Source: a virus (taxonomy: Duplodnaviria > Caudoviricetes). From it: a DNA stretch of 50,547 nucleotides. The notes beneath the pieces are model-generated. The model was not told the origin of the DNA, made no database searches, and saw only the letters and a program-made list of their open reading frames with translations. Numbering within the stretch: position 1 is the first letter of the stretch; each line of letters starts with the position of its first letter. The translations under genes and the position numbers were made by a program. Of this stretch, positions 31,962 to 45,877 are shown one piece after another. The DNA lies in IMG/VR virus record IMGVR_UViG_3300044714_000169, positions 1 through 50,547 of that record. The stretch is one strand, 5' to 3'.

Positions 31962-32059
31962 ACGTCGACGGTCTTTGTCAAGAATGTCGAGATGGGGGTG
32001 ACGGAGTAGAAGAAGAAGAAGAAGAAGAAGAAGAACAGGAGGAAGAAGATGCCAGTTGA
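31901..32059 (+). CDS. 52-aa highly acidic Zn-finger microprotein
   Basis: AAGGAG RBS; MSTERSECEDC...LCQECRDGGDGVEEEEEEEEEQEEEDAS; (GAA)9 at 32009-32035; not in ORF track. Confidence 0.65.
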   Translation: MSTERSECEDCGLEFDPSELDVDGLCQECRDGGDGVEEEEEEEEEQEEEDAS

Positions 32060-32726
32060 CCGAGTTTGCCTCTACTCAGGCGGGCTCGACTCTACCACGC
32101 TTCTTTGGAGTCTGCGCCCAAACGTGAAAGCCCTGCTCATCAACTACGGGCAACGCCACGCGGTCGAACTCGTCCACGCAGCCAAACTCTGTAACACGTT
32201 CGGGATCGATTATGAAACCGCGGATCTGTCGGGGATCAACCGACTAATCCATAAAGGTAGTCAATCAGGTGACGAACTTCCCCCCGATGGTCACTACGCC
32301 GAGGAAACGATGAAAACCACCATCGTTCCCAACCGAAATTCTATCATGTTATCAGTGGCTGTCGGTTGGGCGGTAGCAACCGGGTGTAAAGAAGTTTACT
32401 TCGCCGCCCACGCTGGCGATCACACGATCTACCCCGACTGCCGACGTCAATTCATCGACAAGTTTGCTGAAGCGATGATCGAAGCTAACTTATGGAACCC
32501 AGTTCTAGTTCGAGCGCCATTTGTCCTGATGAACAAATCCGATATCGTGAAGCTGGCCAATAACCTGGGCGTCCCCTTCCAGATGACCTGGAGTTGTTAC
32601 AAAGGTGACAAAATCCACTGCGGTAAGTGTGGAACCTGCACCGAACGGCGGGAAGCATTCCAGCTAGCCGATATCAACGACACTACCGAGTACGAGTATA
32701 CCGGACCGTTGATGGAGGCGAAGTGA
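32049..32726 (+). CDS. queC: 7-cyano-7-deazaguanine (preQ0) synthase
   Basis: SGGLDS PP-loop, YGQRH, VPNRN, YPDCR, TWSCY...HCGKCGTC. Confidence 0.95.
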   Translation: MPVDRVCLYSGGLDSTTLLWSLRPNVKALLINYGQRHAVELVHAAKLCNTFGIDYETADLSGINRLIHKGSQSGDELPPDGHYAEETMKTTIVPNRNSIMLSVAVGWAVATGCKEVYFAAHAGDHTIYPDCRRQFIDKFAEAMIEANLWNPVLVRAPFVLMNKSDIVKLANNLGVPFQMTWSCYKGDKIHCGKCGTCTERREAFQLADINDTTEYEYTGPLMEAK

Positions 32727-32926
32727 GCATCCTCGACCCCAAAAAAATCGCCCAATCAATCATCTCCGACCCAACCAAATGGGTGTTGATGAAATGTGGG
32801 TTTTGTGGTAACGTCGATCACTGGCGAGTCTTAATCAACGTCACCGGGGTTGTCTGTTGGTGTCAAAAGTGTCAGAAGAAGTACAAACTTGAATCCGATT
32901 CCGGGGTAAAGGTGATAGATGCCTAA
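32723..32926 (+). CDS. Zinc-ribbon protein
   Basis: GTG start overlapping queC stop; CGFC...CQKC. Confidence 0.55.
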   Translation: MSILDPKKIAQSIISDPTKWVLMKCGFCGNVDHWRVLINVTGVVCWCQKCQKKYKLESDSGVKVIDA

Positions 32927-33677
32927 ATTTGCTACAGTCGCAATCGATAGTGTAGGAGAACTCGCTCGCCTCTTCTTCAGCAAGGACATGGGTAAGGGTG
33001 CAAACGACCGTGAAAAAATCCGCGCCATGCAGAACTATCCGGGCGCGACTGAACGGTTAAACATGCTCTGTCGATCGTTGAAACAAAAACGTGACAAGGG
33101 GGTGGAAATTGTCTTCACGGCTCATGAAGATATCGAAAAAGTATACGCTAGGGGCGGCGCCATGGCAGGGAAAGGTCAGGCACCTCCTGATCCAGTTGCT
33201 GTCAAGGGTTGGCCAGATGTCCCGGGTAAGAGGGCTCCCGACGAATTCTGCCGCGCGTGCGATAATGTACTCCGCGTACGTCGAGTTAATAACAGCCCCG
33301 CATGGATTGCTGCACGCGAATCAATCGGAGTTGGCGCGGATTACTGGGAGGTTAAAGACCGGTTTAACGGACCCGCAGTTAGAGCAGGCCTACTACCCGC
33401 CAACTACGAGGAGTTGAAAAAGTCCATCTGCGCGGTAAACCCAGGTTGGTGGCGAGCCCCTTACCTCTGGATGCTCTACGGCCCTTACGGAATCGGGAAG
33501 ACCCGCAGTTTGTTAAGCTTCCCCAAACCAATCTTCGTTATCGACCTCGACAAGGGAACAAAATCAATCACTGAGGAAGAAGCCAAATCCGCCCAAATGA
33601 CCATCGATCAATCTATCGACGTTGAGGAATCCGCCCACTACGACAGATTCTTCGGAATTTTGGAGGCAGCGTTCTAA
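32919..33677 (+). CDS. Sak4/AAA_24-like RecA-fold ATPase, circularly permuted
   Basis: Walker B TVAIDS at N-terminus, IVFTAHE, EVKDRF; Walker A GPYGIGKT and VIDLDKG near C-terminus. Confidence 0.8.
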   Translation: MPKFATVAIDSVGELARLFFSKDMGKGANDREKIRAMQNYPGATERLNMLCRSLKQKRDKGVEIVFTAHEDIEKVYARGGAMAGKGQAPPDPVAVKGWPDVPGKRAPDEFCRACDNVLRVRRVNNSPAWIAARESIGVGADYWEVKDRFNGPAVRAGLLPANYEELKKSICAVNPGWWRAPYLWMLYGPYGIGKTRSLLSFPKPIFVIDLDKGTKSITEEEAKSAQMTIDQSIDVEESAHYDRFFGILEAAF

Positions 33678-33678
33678 C

Positions 33679-33918
33679 TTGACCAAACTAGCCGACCACA
33701 TCCAAATCTCTCTCACGATTTCAGACGAACGTTGGCCTGAAATCACCCTCGTGGGTCAGCGGTCAGGGACCTGCGGAACCGCAGCCGCAATCACCCAAAA
33801 ACAGCAGTACGACCTAGCCTACGGAAAAGGCGAGGAAATGCTGCATAACCTGCTCAGACCGGCAGTCGACGAACTGATAAAACGTCGGAAAGGGCCCAAA
33901 TTAAACCCAGGAGAATAA
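33679..33918 (+). CDS. Hypothetical protein (start uncertain)
   Basis: Fills gap between ATPase and SSB. Confidence 0.45.
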   Translation: MTKLADHIQISLTISDERWPEITLVGQRSGTCGTAAAITQKQQYDLAYGKGEEMLHNLLRPAVDELIKRRKGPKLNPGE

Positions 33919-33919
33919 A

Positions 33920-34348
33920 ATGTTAAGAACAGAAGACATGTCGAAAGTTTCCGACTCCGACCTGATGAAGGAGGGTTGGTATCGGGTACGAATCAGTAAC
34001 GTGAAGGAAACCGACGATTCCGGGAATCAACTTCTCTCCAAAACCGGACAGGAACCAATCGTCGAGTTAACCTTGAAGGTTCAGAACGAGGGGGAGTTCT
34101 TCGGTCGTTCGTTTAAGGACAAACCCTCGCTGCAACCCCACGCGCTGTTCAAACTGAAGGCGTATTACAAAGCGGTTGGGTACGCGCCGGGACCGGAAGG
34201 CCACGATCCGGCAAAGCTGCTGGACGGGGAGGTTTGGGTATGGGTTAGCCCGGGTCAGTATCAGGGTCAACCGGTGTTAAACATCCCCCCGTATTCAATT
34301 CGTAGTTTGCAGGAAGGCGCCGGCGGTCCAGGCGGGAAGAAGAACTAA
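33920..34348 (+). CDS. DUF669-like single-stranded DNA-binding protein
   Basis: EGWYRVRI...SKTG...LTLKV..GEFFGR...ALFKLK; usual partner of Sak4. Confidence 0.75.
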   Translation: MLRTEDMSKVSDSDLMKEGWYRVRISNVKETDDSGNQLLSKTGQEPIVELTLKVQNEGEFFGRSFKDKPSLQPHALFKLKAYYKAVGYAPGPEGHDPAKLLDGEVWVWVSPGQYQGQPVLNIPPYSIRSLQEGAGGPGGKKN

Positions 34349-34452
34349 TGTGGGCGCTCGTGTTGGTAATTAGTTACGGGGCTTTAGTCGTTTGGCTAGA
34401 GTCCCGTAGCGAGCGCAAGGAGAGGGAGAGGTGGAGGAAACGTGGAGATTAG
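34348..34452 (+). CDS. 34-aa membrane-anchored peptide
   Basis: TAATG overlap; MWALVLVISYGALVVWL followed by a basic tail. Confidence 0.4.
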   Translation: MWALVLVISYGALVVWLESRSERKERERWRKRGD

Positions 34453-34981
34453 CAAGGAATTTAAATTTGAGGCGAGTCACGTTTTACCAAACCACCCGGG
34501 TAAGTGTTCCAGACTTCACGGCCACTCCTGGGTGCTGAGAGTTGCGGTAACGGGTGAAGTCAACCGCGAAACCGGCTTCGTGATGGACTACGCTGATTTG
34601 AAGAAGTGTGTCCAGCCGATCGTCGACGCCCTAGACCACCGTCATCTAGGTACTTTCGCACTACCAGGAGGGCAAGCCCCTTTGGCACTTTACCAGTGGA
34701 AGCCTGAAGGCCCCGATATCCACTACCCGAACGAGATCTACCCCAGCTCCGAAAATCTCCTTTGGTGGATTGCGGGACAACTTCACGGCCTCGACCTTTA
34801 TCGGATCAAACGATTCAAACAAGATCCTGAAATTCGGTCTTTCCGACCTGGCGAGATTATCCCCTTCGAAGAGCGCGAGAAGATCGACGTCATCAGCCGG
34901 TGGTCCTACATCCAATTAAACGAAACTTGCACCTCATCAGCAATCTTATGCCGAGACGAATTTAATGCCCTACAACGCTGA
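34442..34981 (+). CDS. queD: 6-carboxy-5,6,7,8-tetrahydropterin synthase
   Basis: FEASH.L, CSRLHGHSW, MDYADLK, LDHRHL, PSSENL, ET motifs. Confidence 0.93.
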   Translation: MEISKEFKFEASHVLPNHPGKCSRLHGHSWVLRVAVTGEVNRETGFVMDYADLKKCVQPIVDALDHRHLGTFALPGGQAPLALYQWKPEGPDIHYPNEIYPSSENLLWWIAGQLHGLDLYRIKRFKQDPEIRSFRPGEIIPFEEREKIDVISRWSYIQLNETCTSSAILCRDEFNALQR

Positions 34982-35288
34982 ACTGCAAATGCTGCGGGAA
35001 TTCTTCCTGTTGAACGCGCCACGAATACTCTGCGTGTTCTGCCATCTACCCATCTACCCACCTGAATTATCCAACCGATTAACCTTCGGGCATCGTCGCC
35101 ACACCAAAGTTCACTTTGCAAATTTCACGGTTCACCACGGAGACGGGAACCGTGAAAACAACACTGACCAGAATTTAAAAAACAGTCACAGCGACTGTCA
35201 CAAGCGTTATCACAAACAACTACTACTCCATGGAGGAACAAATGCCGTTAACAGCAGCCCAAATTCAACAGAAAGTCAACCAAGTTAA
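34965..35288 (+). CDS. HNH endonuclease-like protein
   Basis: CVFC...VHHGDGNRENN...NL...HSDCHKRYH. Confidence 0.75.
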   Translation: MPYNAELQMLREFFLLNAPRILCVFCHLPIYPPELSNRLTFGHRRHTKVHFANFTVHHGDGNRENNTDQNLKNSHSDCHKRYHKQLLLHGGTNAVNSSPNSTESQPS

Positions 35289-35550
35289 CAACTGGGTTAC
35301 CGCGATCGAGGGTAACGCCCACCAAACTGTCGCCTCGGCGATCAAGGGTATCGCCGGGATCATGGGAGATTTCGCCACCGATCTGTTGGAGGCGAAAGCG
35401 GCGTTGGCTGCGCTTCAGTCGAAGACACCCGGGCAAACCCCAGCACCGCCAACCAACCCAAATCCACCCGCAGCCAACCCGAACCCGAACCCAACGCCGG
35501 CACCGGCAGCTCAACCCAACGCGCAGACCCAACCAACAAAAACAGCCTAA
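35242..35550 (+). CDS. Coiled-coil protein with Pro/Asn-rich tail
   Basis: GGAGG RBS; PNPPAANPNPNPTP tail. Confidence 0.6.
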   Translation: MPLTAAQIQQKVNQVNNWVTAIEGNAHQTVASAIKGIAGIMGDFATDLLEAKAALAALQSKTPGQTPAPPTNPNPPAANPNPNPTPAPAAQPNAQTQPTKTA

Positions 35551-35565
35551 GGGAGGAGGTTCCAG

Positions 35566-35616
35566 ATGGCAGGCAAGAAGAAGATGAAAAAGATGAAGGA
35601 CAAGAAGAAACACTAA
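35566..35616 (+). CDS. 16-aa Lys-rich micropeptide
   Basis: GGGAGGAGGT RBS then MAGKKKMKKMKDKKKH*. Confidence 0.45.
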   Translation: MAGKKKMKKMKDKKKH

Positions 35617-35633
35617 CCGAAGGGAGATGATCC

Positions 35634-36362
35634 ATGTCTGATACGGGAGAGGTAAAATTACCGATTGCTGAAACCTTTCACTCGATTCAGGGTGAAGGAC
35701 AGTGGGTCGGTACCCCAATGCACTTTATTCGTCTTGCCGGCTGCCCAGTTGGACGACCTGCCAAAGTCGTGAAGGCGAGTGAGTTTGGGCCTCTCCCGCT
35801 TCTCCCTACCGGGGAACAGGCGATGGCCTGTGCAACGTGGGATGGGAGAGGGTTTTGGTGTGACACCGATTACAACAAGCATGAGGAGGTGCTGATCGAA
35901 CAGCTGTTAGCTGAAACCTGGGAGAAACACATCTGTCTGACTGGAGGAGAACCGTTAATCCACTGGAAGAAGTTGATCGGTGGACTCTTCCCCGGCGCTA
36001 TACGAGACGGGGTCAAAATCCATATTGAAACCTCGGGTACAGTTGACGTCGACTTCGGCCAAATGACGCAGAAGGCTGTAACCGACGTTGACTGGCAACT
36101 TTGGTTCACGTGCGCGCCAAAAATCAACTGTACCGATAACATGATCCGTCACTGCGATGAACTGAAGCTGTTGGTCGACGCCCGCTTCCACCCCGACGAA
36201 CTGACCGACAGTATGCGTAACCACCCTAACGTCTTTCTATGCCCAGTCAACAACGTCGACGACGTAAGACTCGACAACGTCGAGCGCGCGATGTTTTGGT
36301 TACAAAAATTCCCAAATTGGAGACTCTCGTGCCAAATGCACAAGTTCCTAAAAATGCGGTAG
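35634..36362 (+). CDS. queE: 7-carboxy-7-deazaguanine synthase (radical SAM)
   Basis: ETFHSIQGEG, FIRLAGC, WCDTDY, LTGGEP, IETSG, WRLSCQMHK. Confidence 0.93.
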   Translation: MSDTGEVKLPIAETFHSIQGEGQWVGTPMHFIRLAGCPVGRPAKVVKASEFGPLPLLPTGEQAMACATWDGRGFWCDTDYNKHEEVLIEQLLAETWEKHICLTGGEPLIHWKKLIGGLFPGAIRDGVKIHIETSGTVDVDFGQMTQKAVTDVDWQLWFTCAPKINCTDNMIRHCDELKLLVDARFHPDELTDSMRNHPNVFLCPVNNVDDVRLDNVERAMFWLQKFPNWRLSCQMHKFLKMR

Positions 36363-36772
36363 ACTGGAAAGGGGTTTGGGAGGTAATTTTCGGGATCTTC
36401 ACGATCCTAATCTTACTCAACCTGCTCCTAACCCCAGCCCACGCGCAAACAACCACCTGCCCTTCGCCAACCCCAGGTAGCCCGCACATCTGTTTAAAAT
36501 GGACAGATAGTACCACCGCCGGCGCTACCTACAACGTTTACCGCACAACCACCTCGGGAGCGGAAAATTACTCAACCCCACTTAATTCAACCCCGTTACC
36601 AGCGGGAACCACCGCATACTACGACTCAACCGTTGCAGTCGGGACCACGTATTACTACACGTTGGCCGCCGTCGGAACAGGAGGTGTATTGAGCACTCCG
36701 ACCGCTGAGGTCAGTGCTCAAATAACAGTGCCACCTAACACACCTACGGGGCTCAGCGTTTCGGTTGATTGA
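36329..36772 (+). CDS. Exported fibronectin type III domain protein
   Basis: GTG 36329 after GGAG; signal/TM IFGIFTILILLNLLLTPAHA-Q; LKW...YNVYR...YYDSTV..GTTYYY. Confidence 0.7.
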   Translation: MPNAQVPKNAVDWKGVWEVIFGIFTILILLNLLLTPAHAQTTTCPSPTPGSPHICLKWTDSTTAGATYNVYRTTTSGAENYSTPLNSTPLPAGTTAYYDSTVAVGTTYYYTLAAVGTGGVLSTPTAEVSAQITVPPNTPTGLSVSVD

Positions 36773-36790
36773 CTGTGAGGTAACCTACTA

Positions 36791-37156
36791 ATGTTGTTGG
36801 ACTTCAGGAAACCGCAGGTAGCTATCGTCGAAAAGTTCGTCTCGCAAACTGGTAAATACCTCTGTTTCCTGGGCAATCATTACCACAAAGGTCATACCTG
36901 CTGGGTGTTCGGCTCTAGTAATAAGGTTACTGGGGAGATAGTTATGCGGCATTACTCTTCAGCCACCAACTCAATCAGTCCAAAAGCCGAGTGTGAAACC
37001 GCTTGGAGAAAGTTTAAGGAGGGGATGCTTGCCAAACCGAAATCGGACTTTGAAGAAGACACCCATATTACACGCCCTTGGGAGAAGGAACAAATCCGAC
37101 GCGGCGGTAGTCTCGCAGTTGCACTTGCAAAATCTAAGCGAGACAAACCCAATTGA
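36791..37156 (+). CDS. Hypothetical protein
   Basis: GAGGT RBS; operon packing. Confidence 0.55.
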   Translation: MLLDFRKPQVAIVEKFVSQTGKYLCFLGNHYHKGHTCWVFGSSNKVTGEIVMRHYSSATNSISPKAECETAWRKFKEGMLAKPKSDFEEDTHITRPWEKEQIRRGGSLAVALAKSKRDKPN

Positions 37157-37439
37157 CAGATTTTACCGGATCGCGTCTGAGCTGTGCGATCTCCACCATA
37201 AGAAATCCTTAGACTACGGCACCGACGGAGATACCTACCAAAACTTCCGTGGATCGGCGAAGATGGGAATCGAACCCTGGAAGGGTGCTTTCATCCGACT
37301 GCAGGACAAAGTCCAACGAATCTGTAAATTCGCGAAAGACGGTAAGTTGGCCAACGAGTCCGTGATCGACAGTTTCTCCGACCTCGCCGTCTACGCGATC
37401 ATCTGTCGAATTCTGTTTGAAGAGGAGCAAGCTAAGTGA
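37125..37439 (+). CDS. DUF1599/Nmad1-like all-alpha NTP pyrophosphohydrolase (start uncertain)
   Basis: KKSLDYG...NF...IRLQDKVQR...ESVIDSFSDLAVYAII. Confidence 0.75.
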   Translation: MQNLSETNPIDRFYRIASELCDLHHKKSLDYGTDGDTYQNFRGSAKMGIEPWKGAFIRLQDKVQRICKFAKDGKLANESVIDSFSDLAVYAIICRILFEEEQAK

Positions 37440-37984
37440 ATCAACATCAGATTGAAAACGGGGTTACCCTAATCTTGAAGGGCTTGGGTTGCGACCCCAA
37501 AGACCACAACTACACCGATACACCCGAACGTTACGCAAAAGCCCTGCTCGAGATGTTCCAACCATCCGATACCGAATGGGCAACCTTCGAGGAGAACTTC
37601 AATGACTTCATCCTACTACGCGGGCATAAAATGTGGTCGCTTTGCCCGCACCATCTGCTTCCCGTCCACTTCACCGTTAGTCTCGCCTACGTACCTAACG
37701 GAAATGTTCTCGGGCTTTCGAAACTGGCACGGCTTCTGGATGAGTGCAATAACGGTCCCCTCCTCCAAGAAAGATTTACCAAACTGGCGGTGGATAAGGT
37801 TGGACAGGTATGTCCTGGGATTAAAGGAGCTGCATGTCTCGTTCATGGCACTCACTCCTGTCTTTCTATGCGTGGGGTTAAAAGCTCGGCAGACTTTGTC
37901 ACGTATAAGTTGGGTGGGGTGTTCGAATCAGACAGTTCGTTAGAGCAGAGATTTTTCACGTTGGCGCAGAGAAGGGAGGGTTAA
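37436..37984 (+). CDS. folE: GTP cyclohydrolase I
   Basis: DTPER, SLCPHHLLP, GLSKLARL, LQER, HSCLSMRGV. Confidence 0.95.
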   Translation: MNQHQIENGVTLILKGLGCDPKDHNYTDTPERYAKALLEMFQPSDTEWATFEENFNDFILLRGHKMWSLCPHHLLPVHFTVSLAYVPNGNVLGLSKLARLLDECNNGPLLQERFTKLAVDKVGQVCPGIKGAACLVHGTHSCLSMRGVKSSADFVTYKLGGVFESDSSLEQRFFTLAQRREG

Positions 37985-37985
37985 A

Positions 37986-40418
37986 TTGGCCGAAATCGTC
38001 TGGGGTGAGGGACCCTTCTCCGCTCGATTAATCATCATCGGGCAGAATCCAGGTCCCGAAGAAATGGAACAAAATCGGCCGTTCGTCGGGGCCAGCGGGA
38101 GAATACTCGACCATGCGCTACAAAAAGTGGGAATTCGTCGCTCTGATTGCTTCATCACTAACGTTTGTAAGCATTTTATACCTCCTGGTCAACCAGTGCC
38201 CCCATTGCTGTTATCCGCGGACCGTCCAATGTTGGATAAAGAGCTCGGGATGCTCCACAACGCCCAGGTGATCTTAACCCTGGGAAAAGAAGCCTTCGAG
38301 TCGTTAACCTGGAAAGACCTCCAAATCCGCCACAACCGAAAGGGCGCGGAGAAGAAAAAGAACGCTTGGTTGCGCGGTTGCCCGTATCAATGGGGGAAAT
38401 ACTGGATCATTCCCGCTGTCCACCCTTCCTTCATCATGCGTACCGGCTTTATCGAGTCCCCACTATTTGAGGTTGACCTTGACCGCGCCCGTCGGTTCGC
38501 GTTCGAAGCAGCCCGACCCCCCGAGGATCACTACCATGACAACTGTACCGATCAAGAGATTCGAGATTACGTTAGACTTTGTGTTGACAGGAAAGAATGC
38601 GGACTTGACATCGAAACTCCTGAAACAACTGTCGACGATGACGACCTCGACCCGAGTATCGTCTCTCCTATCGACCTTATCGGATTGTCTGCGGAAATCG
38701 GAGAATCCGTCGGAGTTCGTCAAGATCAATTCGATCTCCTCCGACCACTCTTCGACGATACTTCTCGATACCCAGTCACTGTCTGGGGGCATAATTGCGG
38801 CGCTTTCGACTTCTACCACATCACCAAAACGTTAGGGTTTAAATTTGGAGGGATAAAGCGTGCTGACGCTATGCTGGGAATGCACTTGTTGTGGAGCCAC
38901 CTCACAAATAAAGACGCAGCTACCTGTTTCAGTATCTTCACGGATATCCCGTACTACAAGAACACCCGCAAGCTTGATCCTCACTTCTACGATACCATTG
39001 GAAATTGCCGAGACACCTATGGTGCACTTTGGGCGGGACGAAACATCCTGCGCGAAATGCGGAAACATCCTGGGATGGAGAGTCTGTTTTGGAACCATAT
39101 GATGGGTGCGGTAGACATCACCAACGAGTGGAGGGTGGTTGGAATCAACACCGACCAAAATCGAGCCGGTCGTGATCTGTTAGTCTGTGGGTTAGCACTA
39201 CAACAATACGAGGAAATCTGGAACAAACTAATGCCGTTTGTCAGCTGGTCTTCCCCCAAACAACTGATCGAACTATTTCGGAAACAAGGCCTGCCAATCT
39301 TCAAGCGAAAAAGGCCGGGAAAGAACGGTGGCCCACCCAAATTCACGGAGACATGTGATGACGACGCGCTCGAAATCTACGTTAAAAGGTTTAACAGTCA
39401 AATCGCCAAACTCGTTCAGGAAATGCGAGTCCTCGCGCACGCAGCCGACTTTCTCGATGTCGCTCGAGCAGATGGGCATGTGAGTCCACGATTTAAACTT
39501 GCTGGCCAGGTCGGTGGCCGAGTTCAGGCAGTTGATCCTGATCTCCAAAATATCCCGGAAACGATTGCTGGAGTATTCCCTCGAGCGATATACATTCCAG
39601 ATCGGCCAAGTGAACAAGTGTTTGGAATTACTGACTTCTCTCAGATTGAATACCGACTCTACGTCACCCAGGCCAAAGACCAAGCGGGGATCGATCAGAT
39701 AAACTCGGGAGACTACCTGTATGGCTTCTTCTACGAAGATATCTTCAAAGAACCGTTCTTTCTCCCCAACCGACCTCGATCCAAATCCAATATCGACCCG
39801 AACGTACCACCATGGAAACTTCTCGTTGCGAAGTCATGGCCGCTGGGATTTATCTACGGAAGAGGGGTCCCTGCTGCTACAGGTCTGCCAATTACTAACC
39901 GAGACTGTGAGCGTATTTACAGCAAGTTCCACCAAGACCATCCACGGATCCAGCCATTCCACACTGAATTGCTCTACACCGCTAGCCGGGTTGGTTACCT
40001 TCTTAGCCCATTTGGCCGCATGCGACGTTTTCCAAACAGCAAGGGGCAGAGAAACGAAATCCTCTCATTCCCCGGACAAGTGGTCGCAGTTGATGTCTTA
40101 TTCCGCAACGCACTGCTCCCGCTGCCAGAGATTCTTAAAGAGCGGTTCGGGGGCCGTCTACTCTTTAGCGTTCATGATTCCGTCGGCTGGTGCGTTAGGA
40201 AAGAGTTTGCCAAACAAGCTAGAGAAACCGTCGACGAAACCATGAGCGCGGCGCTGGCCGAGTTGGGAGGGCTACGGATACCCGTAGAAACAAAACTGGG
40301 TCCAAACTGGGGTGAAGCGAAACGATACGAGGTCTACTTTGGAAACACTAACTCCGCGCCAACAACTGGAACGCTTCCTCCAAATGTTGAATCGACAAGT
40401 TTGGGGGCGGGACAGTAA
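37986..40418 (+). CDS. polA: Family A DNA polymerase with N-terminal uracil-DNA glycosylase-like domain and 3'-5' exonuclease
   Basis: UDG: IIGQNPG..E..RPFVG.SG, HPS. Exo: LDIET, GHN..FD. Pol: LQNIP, DFSQIEYR, AKSWPLGFIYG, VHDS. Confidence 0.9.
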   Translation: MAEIVWGEGPFSARLIIIGQNPGPEEMEQNRPFVGASGRILDHALQKVGIRRSDCFITNVCKHFIPPGQPVPPLLLSADRPMLDKELGMLHNAQVILTLGKEAFESLTWKDLQIRHNRKGAEKKKNAWLRGCPYQWGKYWIIPAVHPSFIMRTGFIESPLFEVDLDRARRFAFEAARPPEDHYHDNCTDQEIRDYVRLCVDRKECGLDIETPETTVDDDDLDPSIVSPIDLIGLSAEIGESVGVRQDQFDLLRPLFDDTSRYPVTVWGHNCGAFDFYHITKTLGFKFGGIKRADAMLGMHLLWSHLTNKDAATCFSIFTDIPYYKNTRKLDPHFYDTIGNCRDTYGALWAGRNILREMRKHPGMESLFWNHMMGAVDITNEWRVVGINTDQNRAGRDLLVCGLALQQYEEIWNKLMPFVSWSSPKQLIELFRKQGLPIFKRKRPGKNGGPPKFTETCDDDALEIYVKRFNSQIAKLVQEMRVLAHAADFLDVARADGHVSPRFKLAGQVGGRVQAVDPDLQNIPETIAGVFPRAIYIPDRPSEQVFGITDFSQIEYRLYVTQAKDQAGIDQINSGDYLYGFFYEDIFKEPFFLPNRPRSKSNIDPNVPPWKLLVAKSWPLGFIYGRGVPAATGLPITNRDCERIYSKFHQDHPRIQPFHTELLYTASRVGYLLSPFGRMRRFPNSKGQRNEILSFPGQVVAVDVLFRNALLPLPEILKERFGGRLLFSVHDSVGWCVRKEFAKQARETVDETMSAALAELGGLRIPVETKLGPNWGEAKRYEVYFGNTNSAPTTGTLPPNVESTSLGAGQ

Positions 40419-41772
40419 ACTGTTTGAGGTCGCGTTGGAGTTTATCCAGACGCGGACTTCAAATTTAGAGATCAAAGACGACGAACGAGCACAACTGAAA
40501 CAAGCTTTCATGAAGGCGTTTCAGATGTCGGAGGAAGAATTACAGAATGCAACCACGAATTCAACTGGTGGAAACGGACACTCAACCCATAACGATATCG
40601 ACTCCGTCCGATCAGATGAAGAGCTTCAAAAAATCCTGCCAACTGGGGGGTTGCTACGTGACTATGTGGAATATACCTCACATAGCGAGGCTCCACTGGT
40701 CTACCACGTAATGTCTTTTTTGTGTGCAATTGGTGCTGTTATCAACCGTCGAATTTGGCTTGACATGGGCTACTATCGAGTGTTTCCCGCTATTGGAGTT
40801 ATCATCCTCGGCCCTTCAGGCATTAAGAAGACATCCGCGACTGACATTGTGGTTAGATTGCTCGGCGACGTCGGAACGGTCAAGCTCTATTCTGAAAAAC
40901 TTACACCGGAAGCACTTATCGAGGGGATGAAGGGAGATGCAACCGGACTTTTATACGCGCCCGAGATGACAGTCTTCCTGAACAAGGTTAAATACAACGA
41001 GGGGTTAATCCAGTTGATCACTCGTTTCATGGACTGCCCAGACCGTTGGGAGTCAGGTACAATCATGAGGGGTAAACATGCGCTTACTAACATCGCTATT
41101 AGCAGTCTTATGTGTAGTACCAGCGATTGGTTTATCCGGTCTACTCCTGCAGATAGCTTTGGAGGTGGGTTTATCGCCAGAAACCTCCTGGTTGTTCAAG
41201 AGTCTAGTTCTCGGTGCGAGCCTATACCTAATCCTGGTGATCCACGTATACGTGAAGGCATTATACAAGGTCTGGCTGGAATCCACTCGCTCGAAGGGGC
41301 GATGAGTTTTAGCCCGGCCGCGATGAAGTGTTACGTAGACTGGTATCGAGGAGAACATCAAGTTGAATCCAAGCAACCCGATCACGAGATCATGTCGACT
41401 TACTTTAACCGCAAGCCGGACCATATTAAAAGACTTGCAATCAGTCTGCATATGGCTGAGCATTCAAACTTTATTCTGTGTCTTGATTGCTTTGAGCGCG
41501 CCCTCTCTCTTCTCGACTGGTTGGAACAATTCATCCCCAAACTTCTGGAACAGATGTTTCGATCGTCTACTGGGGAAGAGTTGGAGCTGGTTTATCGAAT
41601 TATCCGACAACAGGGAACGATCGGTCACTCAGATCTCGTTAGGAAAGTTGGATACACGATGGACGCGCAGAGGGTGAAAGGGATTATCCTGTCGTTGAGG
41701 GAAGCTGGACAGGTAGTTGAGGTGAACGACCCGTTGTTTGGGCACAGTTACCAGGCGAAGGGTAACCGATGA
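40312..41772 (+). CDS. DUF3987-like (primase-associated) helicase/ATPase with C-terminal winged helix
   Basis: SEAPLVYH, ILGPSGIKKTS P-loop, TPEALI, GGGFIAR. Confidence 0.75.
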   Translation: MKRNDTRSTLETLTPRQQLERFLQMLNRQVWGRDSKLFEVALEFIQTRTSNLEIKDDERAQLKQAFMKAFQMSEEELQNATTNSTGGNGHSTHNDIDSVRSDEELQKILPTGGLLRDYVEYTSHSEAPLVYHVMSFLCAIGAVINRRIWLDMGYYRVFPAIGVIILGPSGIKKTSATDIVVRLLGDVGTVKLYSEKLTPEALIEGMKGDATGLLYAPEMTVFLNKVKYNEGLIQLITRFMDCPDRWESGTIMRGKHALTNIAISSLMCSTSDWFIRSTPADSFGGGFIARNLLVVQESSSRCEPIPNPGDPRIREGIIQGLAGIHSLEGAMSFSPAAMKCYVDWYRGEHQVESKQPDHEIMSTYFNRKPDHIKRLAISLHMAEHSNFILCLDCFERALSLLDWLEQFIPKLLEQMFRSSTGEELELVYRIIRQQGTIGHSDLVRKVGYTMDAQRVKGIILSLREAGQVVEVNDPLFGHSYQAKGNR

Positions 41773-41957
41773 CCGAAAAACAGATCGAGATTCTCCAAAT
41801 GCTCGCTGATGGTATGTTGCAAAAGCAGATCGCGGGCAAGTTAGGTCGCAATCGTTGTACGGTTAGATTTCACATTACTCGTATGCTAAGATCTACTAAA
41901 TCGGTTAACACACCTAACTTAGTCGCCTGGGGATTTCGTAACGGGATAATCAAATGA
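41769..41957 (+). CDS. LuxR-type HTH protein
   Basis: TEKQIEILQMLADG...KQIAGKLG....TVRFH. Confidence 0.85.
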   Translation: MTEKQIEILQMLADGMLQKQIAGKLGRNRCTVRFHITRMLRSTKSVNTPNLVAWGFRNGIIK

Positions 41958-42412
41958 TCGACGACTGGGATTACACCGCTCGCCAACTCGGATATAAAGA
42001 CGAGCGAGACCTGTTTCAACGACTCTACGTCGAAGAAGGTCGATCGATCAGTATGTTGGCGCAGATGTTAAAATCTGGTACCGCAACCATCAGCCGCCGA
42101 CTCGATATGCTCGAAATTTCAAAACGTCCACGTGGGGGAGATAACAACTCCGGCAGGCAGATGTACAAACTAACTCATCTAGACCAACGAGTCGTGTTAA
42201 CGTTGCCGTTAAACCTATTACCCGAATTAACCAAAATCAGCCGATCACTGTGGTATAAATATCGCCGTTTCCGAGGAGAACCGAATGGACTTCTGCATTT
42301 TATCACCACTAATGGGGTTGGAGAGGTACAGCCGATTATCGAACCACCATCTAATCCTCCCCCAGATCAAACACCCAAAATACATCAAATTCTACCAGGA
42401 GAGGAAGGCTGA
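41954..42412 (+). CDS. HTH DNA-binding protein
   Basis: LYVEEGRSISMLAQML...TATISRRL...EI.KR. Confidence 0.65.
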   Translation: MIDDWDYTARQLGYKDERDLFQRLYVEEGRSISMLAQMLKSGTATISRRLDMLEISKRPRGGDNNSGRQMYKLTHLDQRVVLTLPLNLLPELTKISRSLWYKYRRFRGEPNGLLHFITTNGVGEVQPIIEPPSNPPPDQTPKIHQILPGEEG

Positions 42413-43061
42413 AGGTGACCACATTCTACTTGACAATGGAGCATACGAAGGGGAGGTTAACCCGACTGAACTGGTTGACTCGATCAAACTTTATTCACCT
42501 AATGTGGTGGTACTACCTGACAAACTGTTGTCGGAGTGGGAGATTACCTGGCGAATGTCATCCGACTTCCTGGACCGATACGGAGATCAATTTGATTGTG
42601 AATGGGCGTATTGCCCTCAATCAACCCCAGATGATATCCTGGGATGGGTTGAAGGCCTCGTACACGCTCTCCAAGATTCGAGAATCAGTTGGATTTGTCT
42701 GCCACGAGCTTTGGGTACTCACATTACCCATGACCCTTTCATACGAGCGAACGTTTGTTCCCGTATCCGAAGTCTTGGCAAAAAAGTACACGCCTTGGGA
42801 ATGTTATCGGGGTCAGTGGCGGAACTTAAACCTCTCCGAGCTGCGGGTTGTAATTCAATTGATTCAGCAGCGCCGGTCTGGAGAGGATTATGTGGATGGA
42901 AGTTGGGGGCACCAGAGAGGTGGCCAGAAGTTGAGGTTGAGTGGGAGTTAGATACCTGGCTCCGTCCTGACTGCGCGATTCCGGTTGGCCCGATTGACGA
43001 GATTATCTTATCAAACCTGGAGGCATGTGGTGTCAACGTTAGTGTTAGGCGCGGAGTATAA
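42285..43061 (+). CDS. dpdA: TGT-like (DpdA-family) deazaguanine transglycosylase, divergent
   Basis: ILLDNGAYEG, VVLPD, PQS, VHALG, SIDSAAP TIM-barrel motifs; co-occurs with folE/queCDE. Confidence 0.7.
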   Translation: MDFCILSPLMGLERYSRLSNHHLILPQIKHPKYIKFYQERKAEGDHILLDNGAYEGEVNPTELVDSIKLYSPNVVVLPDKLLSEWEITWRMSSDFLDRYGDQFDCEWAYCPQSTPDDILGWVEGLVHALQDSRISWICLPRALGTHITHDPFIRANVCSRIRSLGKKVHALGMLSGSVAELKPLRAAGCNSIDSAAPVWRGLCGWKLGAPERWPEVEVEWELDTWLRPDCAIPVGPIDEIILSNLEACGVNVSVRRGV

Positions 43062-43275
43062 ACTAGACGACCAGGTTTGTCTGGTCGTCCGGATAATCAA
43101 ATCCCAATCGATCTTTGAAGATGATTCGGGGGTTGAACAAATCGACGAGCTTTACGCCGAGTTGAAGAGACCTGATGGATCTCCCGAGTTCGTTAGTTTA
43201 ATGAAGAATTCCACTAAGTTTACCGAGAAGAAATCTAACATCCGGGCGTTGGATCCGGTTTGGAGGCCGAAGTGA
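43030..43275 (+). CDS. Hypothetical protein
   Basis: GGAGG RBS then GTG. Confidence 0.5.
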   Translation: MSTLVLGAEYKLDDQVCLVVRIIKSQSIFEDDSGVEQIDELYAELKRPDGSPEFVSLMKNSTKFTEKKSNIRALDPVWRPK

Positions 43276-43628
43276 AATTGAAAAAGAGCTACACACCGAT
43301 GGGCGCACGTTTATTAGTATCCGAGATCATAACTTCTTTATCACTCGAAGAACGCGGAGCGCGTGCCGGATTAACCGTGATCGTCGAAACCGATAACCGA
43401 CCAACCCCGACCACCGGCAAAATCGAAGCGCTCGGCAGCGACCCGATCTTCAAAGACGAAGATATCCAAATAGGCGATATCGTCTTCTACGGGCCGCATG
43501 CCGGCACAGTTCACACGATTGAGGGGCACGAGTTCAAAATGCTCGAGTTCCAGGAGATCACCCTGGTTGAGCGAGACCGAACTACCACTTCGGCTGAACT
43601 CGAAGAGACTCCAACTGTGAATACGTAA
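43272..43628 (+). CDS. groES: GroES-like co-chaperonin
   Basis: PMGARLLV...GKIEALG...IQIGDIVFYGPHAGT..TIEG.EF.ML...EI. Confidence 0.85.
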   Translation: MKLKKSYTPMGARLLVSEIITSLSLEERGARAGLTVIVETDNRPTPTTGKIEALGSDPIFKDEDIQIGDIVFYGPHAGTVHTIEGHEFKMLEFQEITLVERDRTTTSAELEETPTVNT

Positions 43629-44147: not shown

Positions 44148-44564
44148 CTAGTTTTGTGGAACTACTAACGGTTTAACAACCTGTTTGGGGGTTTCCTCCT
44201 GCTGCGCCCGCATAGCTGCTTGAGCGATCGGGCGTTGAGACAACTGAATCTCGGAGAAGTGTTGTACCCCATAACTCGTTGCCCAATGCCATAACCCCGC
44301 GATCACCACACTCCAAGCGGGGATGTTGATTAAGAGTTGGTGGCCTGTACCAGCCGGCGACCAAACCCAGCTAACACCCAATGTACCGATCCCGCTCAAA
44401 ACGATTCGAGCAGCTACGTTTAGTTTGCTGGTGTAATAACTGACCCAAGGGATAGCTTTAGTCCGCTTGGCGAAGTCTAACAAATAAGCGGATAGGATAG
44501 CGACACCCACGCTAGTGGGGATTGTAGGTGCCGCAGGAGCTAACGTGTTAGTGTCGAAAAACAT
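44148..44564 (-). CDS. Holin-like membrane protein
   Basis: About three hydrophobic segments; near endolysin and lipoprotein. Confidence 0.55.
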   Translation of the reverse strand: MFFDTNTLAPAAPTIPTSVGVAILSAYLLDFAKRTKAIPWVSYYTSKLNVAARIVLSGIGTLGVSWVWSPAGTGHQLLINIPAWSVVIAGLWHWATSYGVQHFSEIQLSQRPIAQAAMRAQQEETPKQVVKPLVVPQN

Positions 44565-45877
44565 TATGGGTTCCCTCCTACTTCGTGCAAAACGTTGTGT
44601 TCGGCTCCAATCAACTCCATCAGTTTGTTGTAGTCTTGGTAGATCTGATTGACCGCATCCGTCCGAAATTGTTTTTCTGGTATCCGGGCCTTGTTTACCA
44701 ACTCACTCGGCCCTTCAAACGCTTCCTGGATCGTTCGACCCTTCCCGGTAGCGCACAACAAATTCCCGTAGGCAGACGTCGTGACCAACTTATTGGTCTC
44801 GTCAAACATCACGTCGAAAAAATACAGGTGCTCCCTATCGGTCCGGGTAAACCCGCGAACCGGAATCCCCGCAACCGGTTTAAACTGCTCAGAAGGGTGA
44901 GGGGGAACAGTCAGCCTCAAACCCGCGGCGAAACCATGGCCTAGTTCCATCCGCTCTGGCTGTTCTCCCCTCGCCATCTTGGCGATGAGCTCGCCAAGAT
45001 CCTCGTTAACCAATTCCAATATCGTTGGGAAGGCGTCGTAACCCATCCGCGGGGTAAATTCAAGCGCCCAAACCCCCTCTGAATTGACGATTGTGTTTAG
45101 GTCAACCGGACCTATATGACCGTATTCGGCTAAAATCGGTTCGAACAGCCGAATCCCCTGCTCAACAACGTGGTCGTGTTCACACTTCCAAACCACGTTA
45201 AAAGCGCAACCGGTCGACGGACCCAAGTCATCATTCATCATCGCCTTGTGCTCGATTGTGTGGTTGAACGGCTCCATAAACTTTTCACCGTTAAACCAAC
45301 CTTCGGTAGAGACGGCAACGCCTTTCACATGGCGTTGAAGTTCAAACTCGGGTGAGTGTTTCGCAGCCGACTCAAAATAATCCAACATCGCGATCATGTC
45401 TTCGGTGTCGTAGGCGGAGTAAGTTTGAACCTCCGAATCCTTAGCTAACTCCCCGGAGGCTTTGAAGACGAGTCGGGTGTTGACCCGTCTGGCGTATTTT
45501 CTCCCTTCCTCCCAGTCGAAGAAGGTTTTGGTTTCTGGAAACCTAACCCCCGCTTGTTCCAATAACTCGAATGCAAGTGAGCGATCAAGTTCAATCTGAT
45601 CAGCAAATACAGAACCAGCCCAAGTGAAGTGACCACGAGCACGCAAGCGATCAGCAGTTTTTCCTCCGCCAGAGGAATCAAACAGAACAATGGTTTTATC
45701 GTCAAGGTAATTCTCCCAGTTGGCGGCGGAGTCCAACTTCTGTAAAAGCCCGTTGTAATTGTCTTTAGTTCGGGTGTCACGGCAGTTGACCGCGACCAAA
45801 TGTCCGGCTTGGCGCAAGCGAAGTGCCAACCCGTAACCTTCACCTGAACCCGAAAGCATCAGAAATTTCTCAGCCAC
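44564..45877 (-). CDS. PurD (GAR synthetase)-like ATP-grasp amide ligase
   Basis: ELDR...AG; VFKASG; EHKAMMNDDLGPSTG (cf. DTGPNTGG); LEFTPRMGYD (cf. EFNxRFGDP). Confidence 0.8.
   Translation of the reverse strand: MAEKFLMLSGSGEGYGLALRLRQAGHLVAVNCRDTRTKDNYNGLLQKLDSAANWENYLDDKTIVLFDSSGGGKTADRLRARGHFTWAGSVFADQIELDRSLAFELLEQAGVRFPETKTFFDWEEGRKYARRVNTRLVFKASGELAKDSEVQTYSAYDTEDMIAMLDYFESAAKHSPEFELQRHVKGVAVSTEGWFNGEKFMEPFNHTIEHKAMMNDDLGPSTGCAFNVVWKCEHDHVVEQGIRLFEPILAEYGHIGPVDLNTIVNSEGVWALEFTPRMGYDAFPTILELVNEDLGELIAKMARGEQPERMELGHGFAAGLRLTVPPHPSEQFKPVAGIPVRGFTRTDREHLYFFDVMFDETNKLVTTSAYGNLLCATGKGRTIQEAFEGPSELVNKARIPEKQFRTDAVNQIYQDYNKLMELIGAEHNVLHEVGGNP

Follow-up and report, generated by a model that had tools for sequence, protein, structure and literature searches.

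The carriage of 7-deazaguanines in DNA is among the main routes by which phages escape restriction and some CRISPR nucleases. Among the enzymes associated with such bases, the DpdA3 subfamily was defined by Hutinet in 2023 from CGPG_00065 of phage phiST together with homologues from Campylobacter phages (PMC10516641), and the DpdA3 phages CP220, phiST and Flavobacterium phage immuto_2-6A are described in that report as having all of their G replaced, the bases recorded in the tested phages being dDG, dADG and fdPreQ1. According to the same source, DpdA1 and bacterial DpdA enzymes modify 0.1–30% of G, at sequence motifs. For bacterial DpdA, Asp95 has been assigned as the acid/base, Asp130 and His181 as the residues responsible for base recognition and Asp256 as the nucleophile, the enzyme also possessing a zinc site shared with TGT plus a large insertion (Ins8) after the nucleophile (PMC10164549). 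The present analysis concerns IMG/VR virus record IMGVR_UViG_3300044714_000169 (Duplodnaviria; Caudoviricetes), the whole 50,547 nucleotides of which are referred to as the window, and in particular a 258-amino-acid (aa) TGT-like protein (P0001) encoded there at 42285..43061 on the plus strand, together with the accompanying genes for synthesis of preQ0 (7-cyano-7-deazaguanine).

Judged on gene content and homology, the region 32049-43061 (+), in which the genes for QueC, QueD, QueE and FolE are interleaved with replication genes, is very probably a 7-deazaguanine DNA-modification module set among the replication genes of a tailed phage of lytic type, an assessment which applies jointly to the module and to the assignment of the 258-aa protein to the DpdA3 type; with the same high confidence, the phage DNA is predicted to carry a 7-deazaguanine. 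An earlier note, prepared from the sequence alone, had located folE, queD, queE, queC and the TGT-like gene among genes of replication and had drawn attention to an LDNGAYEG motif in the 258-aa reading frame. Profile matches bore out the position of each of these genes on the plus strand, and the motif was read as described. The further suggestion that the TGT-like gene was a relative of DpdA, to be placed among the DpdA subfamilies, was narrowed by profile, profile–profile and fold comparisons to the DpdA3 type.

The 258-aa protein returned no match in Pfam (E ≤ 0.01), PHROGs or NCBIfam, and none among PDB sequences (7UI4 included), either as a single sequence or as a profile at E ≤ 10. Its relatives are nevertheless numerous: 130 matches were obtained among 332 candidates in 90% clusters, and the family amounts to 562 clusters at 50% identity (E ≤ 0.001). 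None of the 120 relatives listed carries a precomputed Pfam domain, and where a source names them it is as 'hypothetical protein'. An alignment of the query with 41 of these 120 listed matches (A1, 42 sequences) was used as a profile, which matched phiST at 32547-33245 (E 3.8e-18), corresponding to the 259-aa gp042, and CP220 at 54768-55337 (CPT_0056; E 4.7e-5), while hhalign of A1 against gp042 gave a probability of 98.7% (E 4e-16) over 220 columns. Within phiST, gp042 follows genes for MazG, a small QueD-like protein and an AAA_18 ATPase, and precedes a polymerase gene; because this order matches that given for CGPG_00068 to CGPG_00064 (PMC10516641), gp042 was equated with CGPG_00065. With the same profile no match at E ≤ 10 was obtained in 9g or CAjan, both of them DpdA1 phages, and hhalign comparisons of the family profile with E. 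coli TGT (0.4%) and with the DpdA of 9g (3.3%) were non-significant. Since A1 matches phiST and CP220, and not 9g or CAjan, the protein is best regarded as being of the DpdA3 type rather than DpdA1, DpdA2 or bacterial DpdA. Searched with PF01702, the genome gave nothing at E ≤ 10, although all 14 of the control genomes gave a match; the model likewise failed to detect the DpdA genes of 9g, CAjan, CP220 and phiST. A tblastn search of phages with the 258-aa protein gave four usable distant matches; two further rows, to Bacillus phage BSP7 and Phocaeicola phage PV4-TP1 (E 8–9), were treated as noise.

Structural comparisons led to the same group of enzymes. The AF2 model built on A1 is an eight-stranded barrel (pLDDT 93.9, pTM 0.92) for which TGTs headed the Foldseek results against the PDB (top E 4.7e-6), with bacterial DpdA 7UI4 at rank 31 (E 2.9e-5, TMq 0.55) and two unrelated TIM barrels (2qw5, 6k0k) scoring around 3e-5 in the same list. 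A VIA alignment to TGT gave a Z of 15.9 and a root-mean-square deviation of 4.2 with 234 of the 258 residues aligned, and all 50 of the 50 matches listed were TGTs. Among BFVD viral models the best match was a 422-aa protein (E 2.7e-15), and the 259-aa phiST protein M4SLA5 was recovered at E 1.9e-14 (TM 0.76). The residues invariant in A1 (n = 42) are D50, E55, P78, D79, R141, R154, H169, G172, D193, A196, P197, W199 and R200, of which D50, D79, H169 and D193 sit at strand ends of the model. The order of these four matches that of Asp95, Asp130, His181 and Asp256 in bacterial DpdA, to which they may be equivalent to judge by chain order and strand-end position. A local hhalign alignment of LDNGAYE with LDSGAFS of the 9g DpdA reached a probability of only 3.3%. 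Following D193 only 65 residues remain; the Cys cluster is absent, and C248 is the sole nearly invariant Cys of that part of A1. The structural zinc motif of TGT is CxCxxC...H, and no such motif was seen in A1. As modelled, the protein consists of a bare TIM barrel without the zinc subdomain.

TGT is the best structural match of the 258-aa protein, which differs from it in being approximately 110 residues shorter and in lacking both a PF01702 match and a visible zinc motif. With bacterial DpdA (7UI4) and the DpdA1 of 9g and CAjan it shares the TIM-barrel base-exchange fold, the Asp-Asp-His-Asp order and the pathway that supplies preQ0; unlike them, it shows no sequence-profile match, zinc site or Ins8. 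The DpdA3 proteins of phiST and CP220 resemble it in their size of about 260 aa, their bare TGT-type barrel, profile-level homology and motif pattern, and in the location of the gene beside those for FolE, QueD, QueE and replication, but identity is only some 22–24% and the window's protein belongs to a clade of its own. The pattern LDNGA, PD, HxLG and DS..P.W was also read in the proteins of phiST, CP220 and Rhizobium phage RHph_I1_18. A quick maximum-likelihood tree (58 rows) placed the clade of the window, with 26 rows (SH-aLRT 88), as sister (90) to four proteins of large Vibrio, Aeromonas and Rhizobium phages (100), with phiST and CP220 on long branches elsewhere. Net charge and isoelectric point were tried as a discriminator and rejected, DpdA3-like proteins, DpdA1 and TGT all being acidic. 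As a separate observation, CPT_0056 of CP220 (L067 7676-8452) gave a weak match to DUF6610 (E 0.005, below cut-off), a domain tied to the DpdA4 of archaeal viruses (PMC10516641), which hints that DpdA3 and DpdA4 may form a closer pair than either does with DpdA1 or DpdA2.

The pathway genes begin at the left end of the region with QueC, the preQ0 synthase (225 aa; 32049..32726, +; Pfam QueC 2.5e-57), which scored 179.5 bits against TIGR00364, above the equivalog cut-off of 150.3, and whose translation displays an SGGxDS-type PP-loop motif and a C-terminal Cys cluster. QueD, the 6-carboxytetrahydropterin synthase (179 aa, with extra C-terminal sequence; 34442..34981, +; Pfam PTPS 4.2e-27), reached 91.4 bits against TIGR03367, for which the cut-off is 89.25, and keeps the Cys of the CxxxHGH motif; it is thus not the Leu variant of QueD type that constitutes DpdL (PMC10516641). 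The QueE-like radical-SAM 7-carboxy-7-deazaguanine synthase (35634..36362, +; PHROG 2076 4.5e-25) has three Cys that are kept across the clade, with an insertion of about 30 aa between the first and the second (Cx28Cx9C here), and is treated as a divergent QueE; the insertion was seen in the clade's loci L007-L029 and not in more distant loci. FolE, GTP cyclohydrolase I, lies at 37436..37984 (+; Pfam 1.3e-37; PHROG 2197 8.4e-35). On the strength of homology, these four enzymes would together convert GTP to the free base preQ0. Neither QueF (PF14489) nor GATase_7 (PF13537) was found anywhere in the genome; the earlier note had likewise recognised no queF, arcS or gat-queC.

A scan of IMG/VR for relatives of the DpdA3-like protein furnished 53 loci, which dereplication of that protein at 90% reduced to 45 groups with the window included; gene calls in these loci were made with a simple greedy open reading frame (ORF) picker, and gene distances are accordingly approximate. 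About half of the loci are syntenic phages of 47–50 kb in which the common order is QueD, QueE, a conserved 121-aa protein (u121), a small gene, FolE, PolA, primase, a conserved 152-aa protein (u152), the DpdA3-like protein and a GroES-like protein. At least one preQ0-pathway gene occurs within 7 kb of the DpdA3-like gene in 36 of the 45 groups, which argues that the cluster is not a chance co-occurrence. A DNA polymerase gene, PolA or PolB according to clade, was present within the same distance in 44 groups and a gene of nucleotide-enzyme type in 24, those near the DpdA3-like gene in the more distant groups being dUTPase_2/MazG-like (6), HD (3), thymidylate-kinase-like (2) and dUTPase (2). 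A separate clade (L034, L035, L038, L047, L048, L050, L053 and L055) has a different block, made up of two genes without Pfam or PHROG match (365 and 302 aa), the DpdA3-like gene, PolB, dUTPase_2 and ribonucleotide reductase, often with thymidylate-kinase-like and HD genes nearby and with no FolE, QueD or QueE within 7 kb; such phages may use preQ0 precursors of the host or insert another base.

Where the DpdA3 phages already described have MazG, DpdL and AAA_18 as accessory genes, the window has a DUF1599-like gene, u121 and u152. The DUF1599-like protein (106 aa; 37119..37439, +; PHROG 1485, unknown function, 4.7e-15) occupies the position directly before folE. Its start is probably the TTG at 37119 rather than 36993, because 16 homologues are of 84–151 aa; read from there, the gene overlaps the end of u121 by 38 nt. 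The folE start lies 4 nt before the stop of the DUF1599-like gene and the polA start 2 nt after the folE stop, so that the three genes are, as previously described, consecutive and free of intergenic gaps. The same description had made the first of them a DUF1599-like pyrophosphatase, an activity to be regarded as possible at most. The match to Pfam DUF1599 (PF07659, Nmad1) amounts to 16.9–17.8 bits (E 0.004–0.009) against a cut-off of 25 and spans profile positions 16–59 only, the relative in L028 scoring 20.0 bits. An alignment of 18 sequences has H26, K29, D32, Y33, G34, R60, D63, K64, R67, E80, D84 and D88 as invariants, and the AF2 model is a four-helix bundle (pLDDT 89.6) for which Foldseek returned nothing at E ≤ 0.001, the top match being AF_0060 at E 0.93. 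In a wide VIA search, eight of the 50 chains listed were NTP pyrophosphohydrolases of the MazG/HisE/RS21-C6 type, with the longest coverage, but their Z values lie at the noise level for helical proteins (2yxh 6.7, 2a3q 6.6, 1vmg 6.5, 2p06 6.5, 1yvw 6.4, 2oie 6.3, 7bgm 6.0 and 7ody, the MazZ of S-2L, 5.9). A complex prediction for this protein with the DpdA3-like protein, run without controls, gave no verdict (score 0.00).

Across the 24 loci of the window's clade in which the interval before folE is contained, the contents of this slot vary: DUF3310 was found in eight, PF18909 in five, a DUF1599-like protein in three (window included) and nothing recognisable in eight. The DUF3310 proteins (Pfam 2.6e-16) match PHROG 'nucleotide kinase' families down to 1.7e-29, and the proteins with PF18909 ('dATP/dGTP diphosphohydrolase, N-terminal'; 1.4e-15) match PHROG 801, 'dATP/dGTP pyrophosphohydrolase'. 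DUF3310 is also the sole Pfam domain found in T7 gp1.7 (residues 122–184, 4.5e-23), an enzyme that phosphorylates dTMP and dGMP (PMC7693777, citing Tran 2012), and enzymes of the MazZ type convert dGTP to dGMP for PurZ in Z-genome phages (PMC8342488).

The gene following folE encodes an 810-aa DNA polymerase A with an N-terminal domain of the uracil-DNA glycosylase (UDG) superfamily (37986..40418, +; Pfam UDG 1.6e-22, DNA_pol_A 1.6e-25), the family-4-like UDG domain occupying residues 7–153 and DNA_pol_A residues 419–777. It had been thought altered in the manner of Z-genome phages, a view that is not sustained by a score of 46.5 bits against the DpoZ model, for which the cut-off is 500; the protein is better described as a UDG-PolA fusion. 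Such fusions are a known theme in phages (PMC13697223), and those of SPO1 and the SP-15-like phages resemble the present protein in combining an N-terminal UDG-superfamily domain with PolA in a phage with modified DNA (here predicted), but differ in that the phages have T-hypermodified DNA and the polymerases are much larger, with three insertions (PMC13697223). Pfam detects no exonuclease domain in residues 151–420, where the relative in L057 has one (7.5e-12); by eye, DIE- and NxxxFD-like motifs can be made out, and a 3'-5' exonuclease is probably present but divergent. The UDG domain has a GQNPGP motif at the position where family-4 UDG enzymes have an acidic motif.

Six cultured phages match the A1 profile, and in all six a gene of nucleotide-kinase type lies beside, near or fused to the DpdA3-like gene. 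In phiST, MazG (gp039) and AAA_18 (gp041) are found near gp042, while in CP220 CPT_0056 is flanked by CPT_0055 (HD plus AAA_33) and CPT_0057 (AAA_28). The matching gene of Vibrio phage D479 (A1 5.4e-27) is followed by a T4-type dNMP kinase (PF21448) and then by a DCD/dUTPase-like gene, an order repeated in Aeromonas phage Ahp1_CNU-2021 (A1 1.7e-28; DNMK 1.7e-17). For the gene of Vibrio phage Bakedbeans (A1 2.4e-15), an AAA_28 gene lies three genes upstream, and a gene with a weak DNMK match (E 7.7e-4, below cut-off) lies downstream. In Rhizobium phage RHph_I1_18 the relevant protein, EVB91_073, is a fusion of 422 aa in which A1 matches positions 1–247 (3e-27) and DUF3310 residues 353–411 (24.2 bits against a cut-off of 24). 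A second fused protein, the metagenomic P0213 (356 aa), matches A1 over residues 1–219 (hhalign 99.6%) and PF18909 over residues 256–345 (1.5e-14). P0213 emerged from a scan of the 13 longest of 150 listed representatives, and the two fusions are independent; a word-based search for fused forms of at least 453 aa found none, which is weak evidence. It was also observed that in D479, Ahp1_CNU-2021 and RHph_I1_18 (L002, L068 and L066) a DCD/dUTPase-like gene follows the DpdA3-like gene (or fusion) and the kinase, with FolE 2–3 kb upstream.

These observations bear on the stage at which the base would be introduced. In the mechanism tentatively preferred, to which we assign slightly less than an even chance, the DpdA3-type enzyme would act on free deoxyguanosine, as nucleotide or nucleoside, and not on DNA, replacing the guanine by preQ0. 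A small helical partner, DUF1599-like here and DUF3310 or PF18909 in sister phages, would handle the dG nucleotide; the product would be phosphorylated to the triphosphate by host or phage kinases and then incorporated by the UDG-PolA polymerase that the phage encodes. The extension of this role to DpdA3-type enzymes in general, as dG nucleotide/nucleoside base-exchange enzymes that do not act on DNA, is put forward equally cautiously, at just under even. The earlier note had proposed a nucleotide-level route on account of the supposed pyrophosphatase and the supposedly altered polymerase; neither argument carries much weight, and such support as the route now enjoys is independent of them, coming from the kinase and pyrophosphohydrolase neighbours and the two domain fusions in other phages. 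The fusions join the DpdA3-like protein to domains otherwise known only from enzymes of dG nucleotides, which counts for a nucleotide-level exchange, as does the free dADG nucleoside reported in CP220-infected cells (PMC10516641). The scheme can be compared, by analogy and not by membership, with the Z-genome system of PurZ, MazZ and DatZ and with hydroxymethylcytosine (hmC) synthesis in T4: if nucleotide-level, it too would proceed from a monophosphate, produced by a pyrophosphohydrolase, through rebuilding of the base to kinases and the phage polymerase. The fully substituted phage bases with established routes (hmC, hydroxymethyluracil and Z) are, to our knowledge, all made before replication. 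A further point of likeness is that PF18909, the domain of the Z-genome dATP/dGTP diphosphohydrolase, occurs in sister phages and, in fused form, with a DpdA3-like protein. The system is unlike that of Z-genome phages in that the window holds no PurZ, DatZ, DpoZ or recognisable MazZ, and in that the base would be rebuilt by a TGT-fold transglycosylase, for which action on mononucleotides is without precedent. A literature search, with subscription papers and supplements outside its scope, found no paper proposing a nucleotide-level route for 7-deazaguanines.

The leading alternative, which we hold to be a serious contender at rather below an even chance, is that the DpdA3-type barrel exchanges G for preQ0 after replication, directly in phage DNA and perhaps in association with the replisome, the small helical or fused domains and u152 then being DNA- or replisome-targeting partners that replace the zinc subdomain. 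All characterised TGT and DpdA enzymes use polynucleotides, and bacterial DpdA employs Asp95 and Asp256 on DNA (PMC10164549). The authors who defined DpdA3 favoured the same course, having concluded, by an argument from the presence of DpdA homologues, that all such modifications are post-replicative; tests of DpdA3 activity in E. coli failed and the enzyme was never made to work in vitro (PMC10516641). The polymerase gene lies within four called genes of the DpdA3-like gene in 41 of the 45 groups and directly beside it in 18, which speaks for this reading; this proximity is non-discriminating, because the DpdA1 gene of 9g (one genome, by annotation) also adjoins polymerase genes. Immediately 5' of the DpdA3-like gene, with an overlap of 128 nt, is u152 (152 aa; 41954..42412, +), a conserved helix-turn-helix (HTH)-like protein with a weak match to HTH_38 (E 0.044) that is kept in 27 of 54 loci, a relative of which matches HTH_23 and Sigma70_r4 at E 2e-4 to 3e-3; translational overlap with such a protein would suit an enzyme acting on DNA. 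The median length of u152 in its family is 133 aa, against 152 aa here, and the window copy may have a read-through tail.

Other considerations likewise weigh against a nucleotide-level exchange or against the scheme of which it forms part. No recognisable match to a kinase, MazG, HD, dGTPase or PF18909 was found among the window's ORFs, so a nucleotide route here would require kinases of the host to accept the modified nucleotide. The DUF1599 match falls below the Pfam cut-off, and the slot proteins can be regarded as positional analogues only, because no relationship emerged when the DUF3310, PF18909, DUF1599-like and dUTPase_2 clusters were compared by hhalign. DUF3310 and PF18909 could equally be DNA- or replisome-binding modules, and since a dNMP kinase is standard in T4-like phages its adjacency in D479 and Ahp1_CNU-2021 may be incidental. 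With respect to the supply of preQ0, the QueE-like protein scored 54–71 bits against the NCBIfam QueE models, under their cut-offs of 200–300 (best 70.7 against 200), and FolE scored 136 bits against NCBIfam FolE, under the cut-off of 162. An exchange on DNA faces difficulties of a different kind: full replacement of G by base-by-base exchange on duplex DNA is without a worked-out precedent, the zinc subdomain is missing and a mere 65 residues follow D193 where bacterial DpdA has Ins8, and the kinase, MazG, HD and dUTPase_2 neighbours and the fusions in other phages would be left unexplained.

Whichever the stage of insertion, dPreQ0 is favoured with moderate confidence as the final base. It is the default expectation, as it was in the earlier note, given that the genome encodes QueC and that a search for QueF, an amidotransferase or a DpdL-type gene revealed none. 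By analogy with the three tested DpdA3 phages, replacement of G is probably at or near full, and dPreQ0 in place of G would protect the phage DNA from restriction. A different outcome, independent of the insertion step and considered unlikely though by no means negligible, is that the DNA is modified with another base, either because QueC releases an amide intermediate, giving dADG, or because a conserved gene product alters preQ0. Of the three tested DpdA3 phages named above, none carries dPreQ0, the bases being those listed at the outset (PMC10516641), and the combination of QueC without QueF sets the window apart from those phages. The clade moreover retains conserved genes without assigned function, of which the candidates are u121 (15 loci) and an ATP-grasp protein encoded at 44564-45877 (18 of 54 loci). 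Set against this are the QueC score, which exceeds the equivalog cut-off for a preQ0 synthase, and the absence of any recognisable QueF, amidotransferase, DpdL-type QueD paralogue, methylase or formylase.

Of the two candidates, u121 (121 aa; 36791..37156, +), situated between queE and the variable slot, is without Pfam or PHROG match; tblastn matched it in 22 of 53 loci at 28–51% identity, its ORF cluster comprised 15 loci, and ESM Atlas gave no usable match. The ATP-grasp protein (437 aa, minus strand) shows weak PurD-like matches (GARS_A E 5e-5, GARS_C E 8e-3), and its gene, kept within the same phage clade, sits between the GroES-like gene and a gene for a protein of about 1200–1700 aa, probably of the tail. 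It could be an amide-forming enzyme, and nothing ties it to the base pathway.

That the DNA is unmodified, the pathway genes serving as auxiliary metabolic genes for host queuosine/tRNA or folate and the barrel having another role, is very improbable: FolE and QueD-like genes do occur in phages for other reasons and the 258-aa protein matches no curated family, but that protein is related at profile level to the DpdA3 proteins of two phages whose DNA is fully modified, preQ0 genes co-localise with it in 36 of 45 groups, the acidic and His active-site pattern is kept, and the tRNA-binding parts of TGT are absent (no PF01702 match).

The genome that carries this module is complete, the record having direct terminal repeats and a completeness rated at 100%. 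Terminase, portal, major head protein and other virion proteins are encoded on the minus strand, the early/replication block occupies about 23.6 to 43.6 kb of the plus strand, and no tRNA genes were found in the window. A megablast comparison of the region with 50,697 phage records was negative, there being nothing close in GenBank phage DNA, and in public runs the sequence was found only as assembled soil-metagenome contigs (X1, all sampled words; X2, 0.08).

Downstream of queC, a Sak4-like AAA_24 recombination ATPase (32919..33677, +; Pfam AAA_24 4.5e-14; PHROG 124 2.6e-21) is followed by a conserved 142-aa protein (33920..34348, +; 37–60% identity across related loci), which on a weak DUF669 match (E 0.086) is a possible DUF669-type single-stranded DNA-binding partner of Sak4; in more distant loci an AAA_24 gene is followed by a DUF669 gene. 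An HNH endonuclease-like ORF (34965..35288, +; PHROG 1571 E 1.5e-4; 8 loci) lies between queD and queE. Between queE and u121 there is a 177-aa ORF (36239-36772, +) peculiar to this genome, which overlaps the end of queE by 124 nt. Its N-terminus is basic, and it has a single hydrophobic stretch and a part rich in Thr and Pro that gives weak PHROG matches of tail-fibre-repeat type; it resembles a moron or a mis-called start. The polymerase gene is followed by those for a DUF3987 primase/helicase-type replication protein (40312..41772, +; Pfam DUF3987 1.1e-12; PHROG 14296, DNA primase, 1.6e-22) and a small GerE/LuxR-type HTH protein (41769..41957, +; Pfam GerE 3.8e-9), after which come u152 and the DpdA3-like gene. 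Beyond the module, a GroES-like co-chaperonin is encoded at 43260-43628 (+; Cpn10 E 1.9e-6) and is kept in 19 loci.

DpdA3 and the preQ0 pathways of phages were already known; what is added here is a deep, unannotated DpdA3 clade, the predicted pairing of a DpdA3-type enzyme with a pathway that terminates at QueC, a variable nucleotide-domain slot, and evidence on mechanism drawn from fusions and gene neighbourhoods. No curated model recognises this family, with the result that phages with modified DNA of this kind are at present invisible to annotation. The comparative pattern makes the question of pre- or post-replicative insertion directly testable with a small soluble enzyme and substrates that can be bought, and the cultured phages D479, Ahp1_CNU-2021 and RHph_I1_18 constitute ready-made test systems. 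A nucleotide-level route, if true, would provide an enzymatic way to 7-deaza-dG nucleotides and would represent the first pre-replicative purine swap by a transglycosylase.

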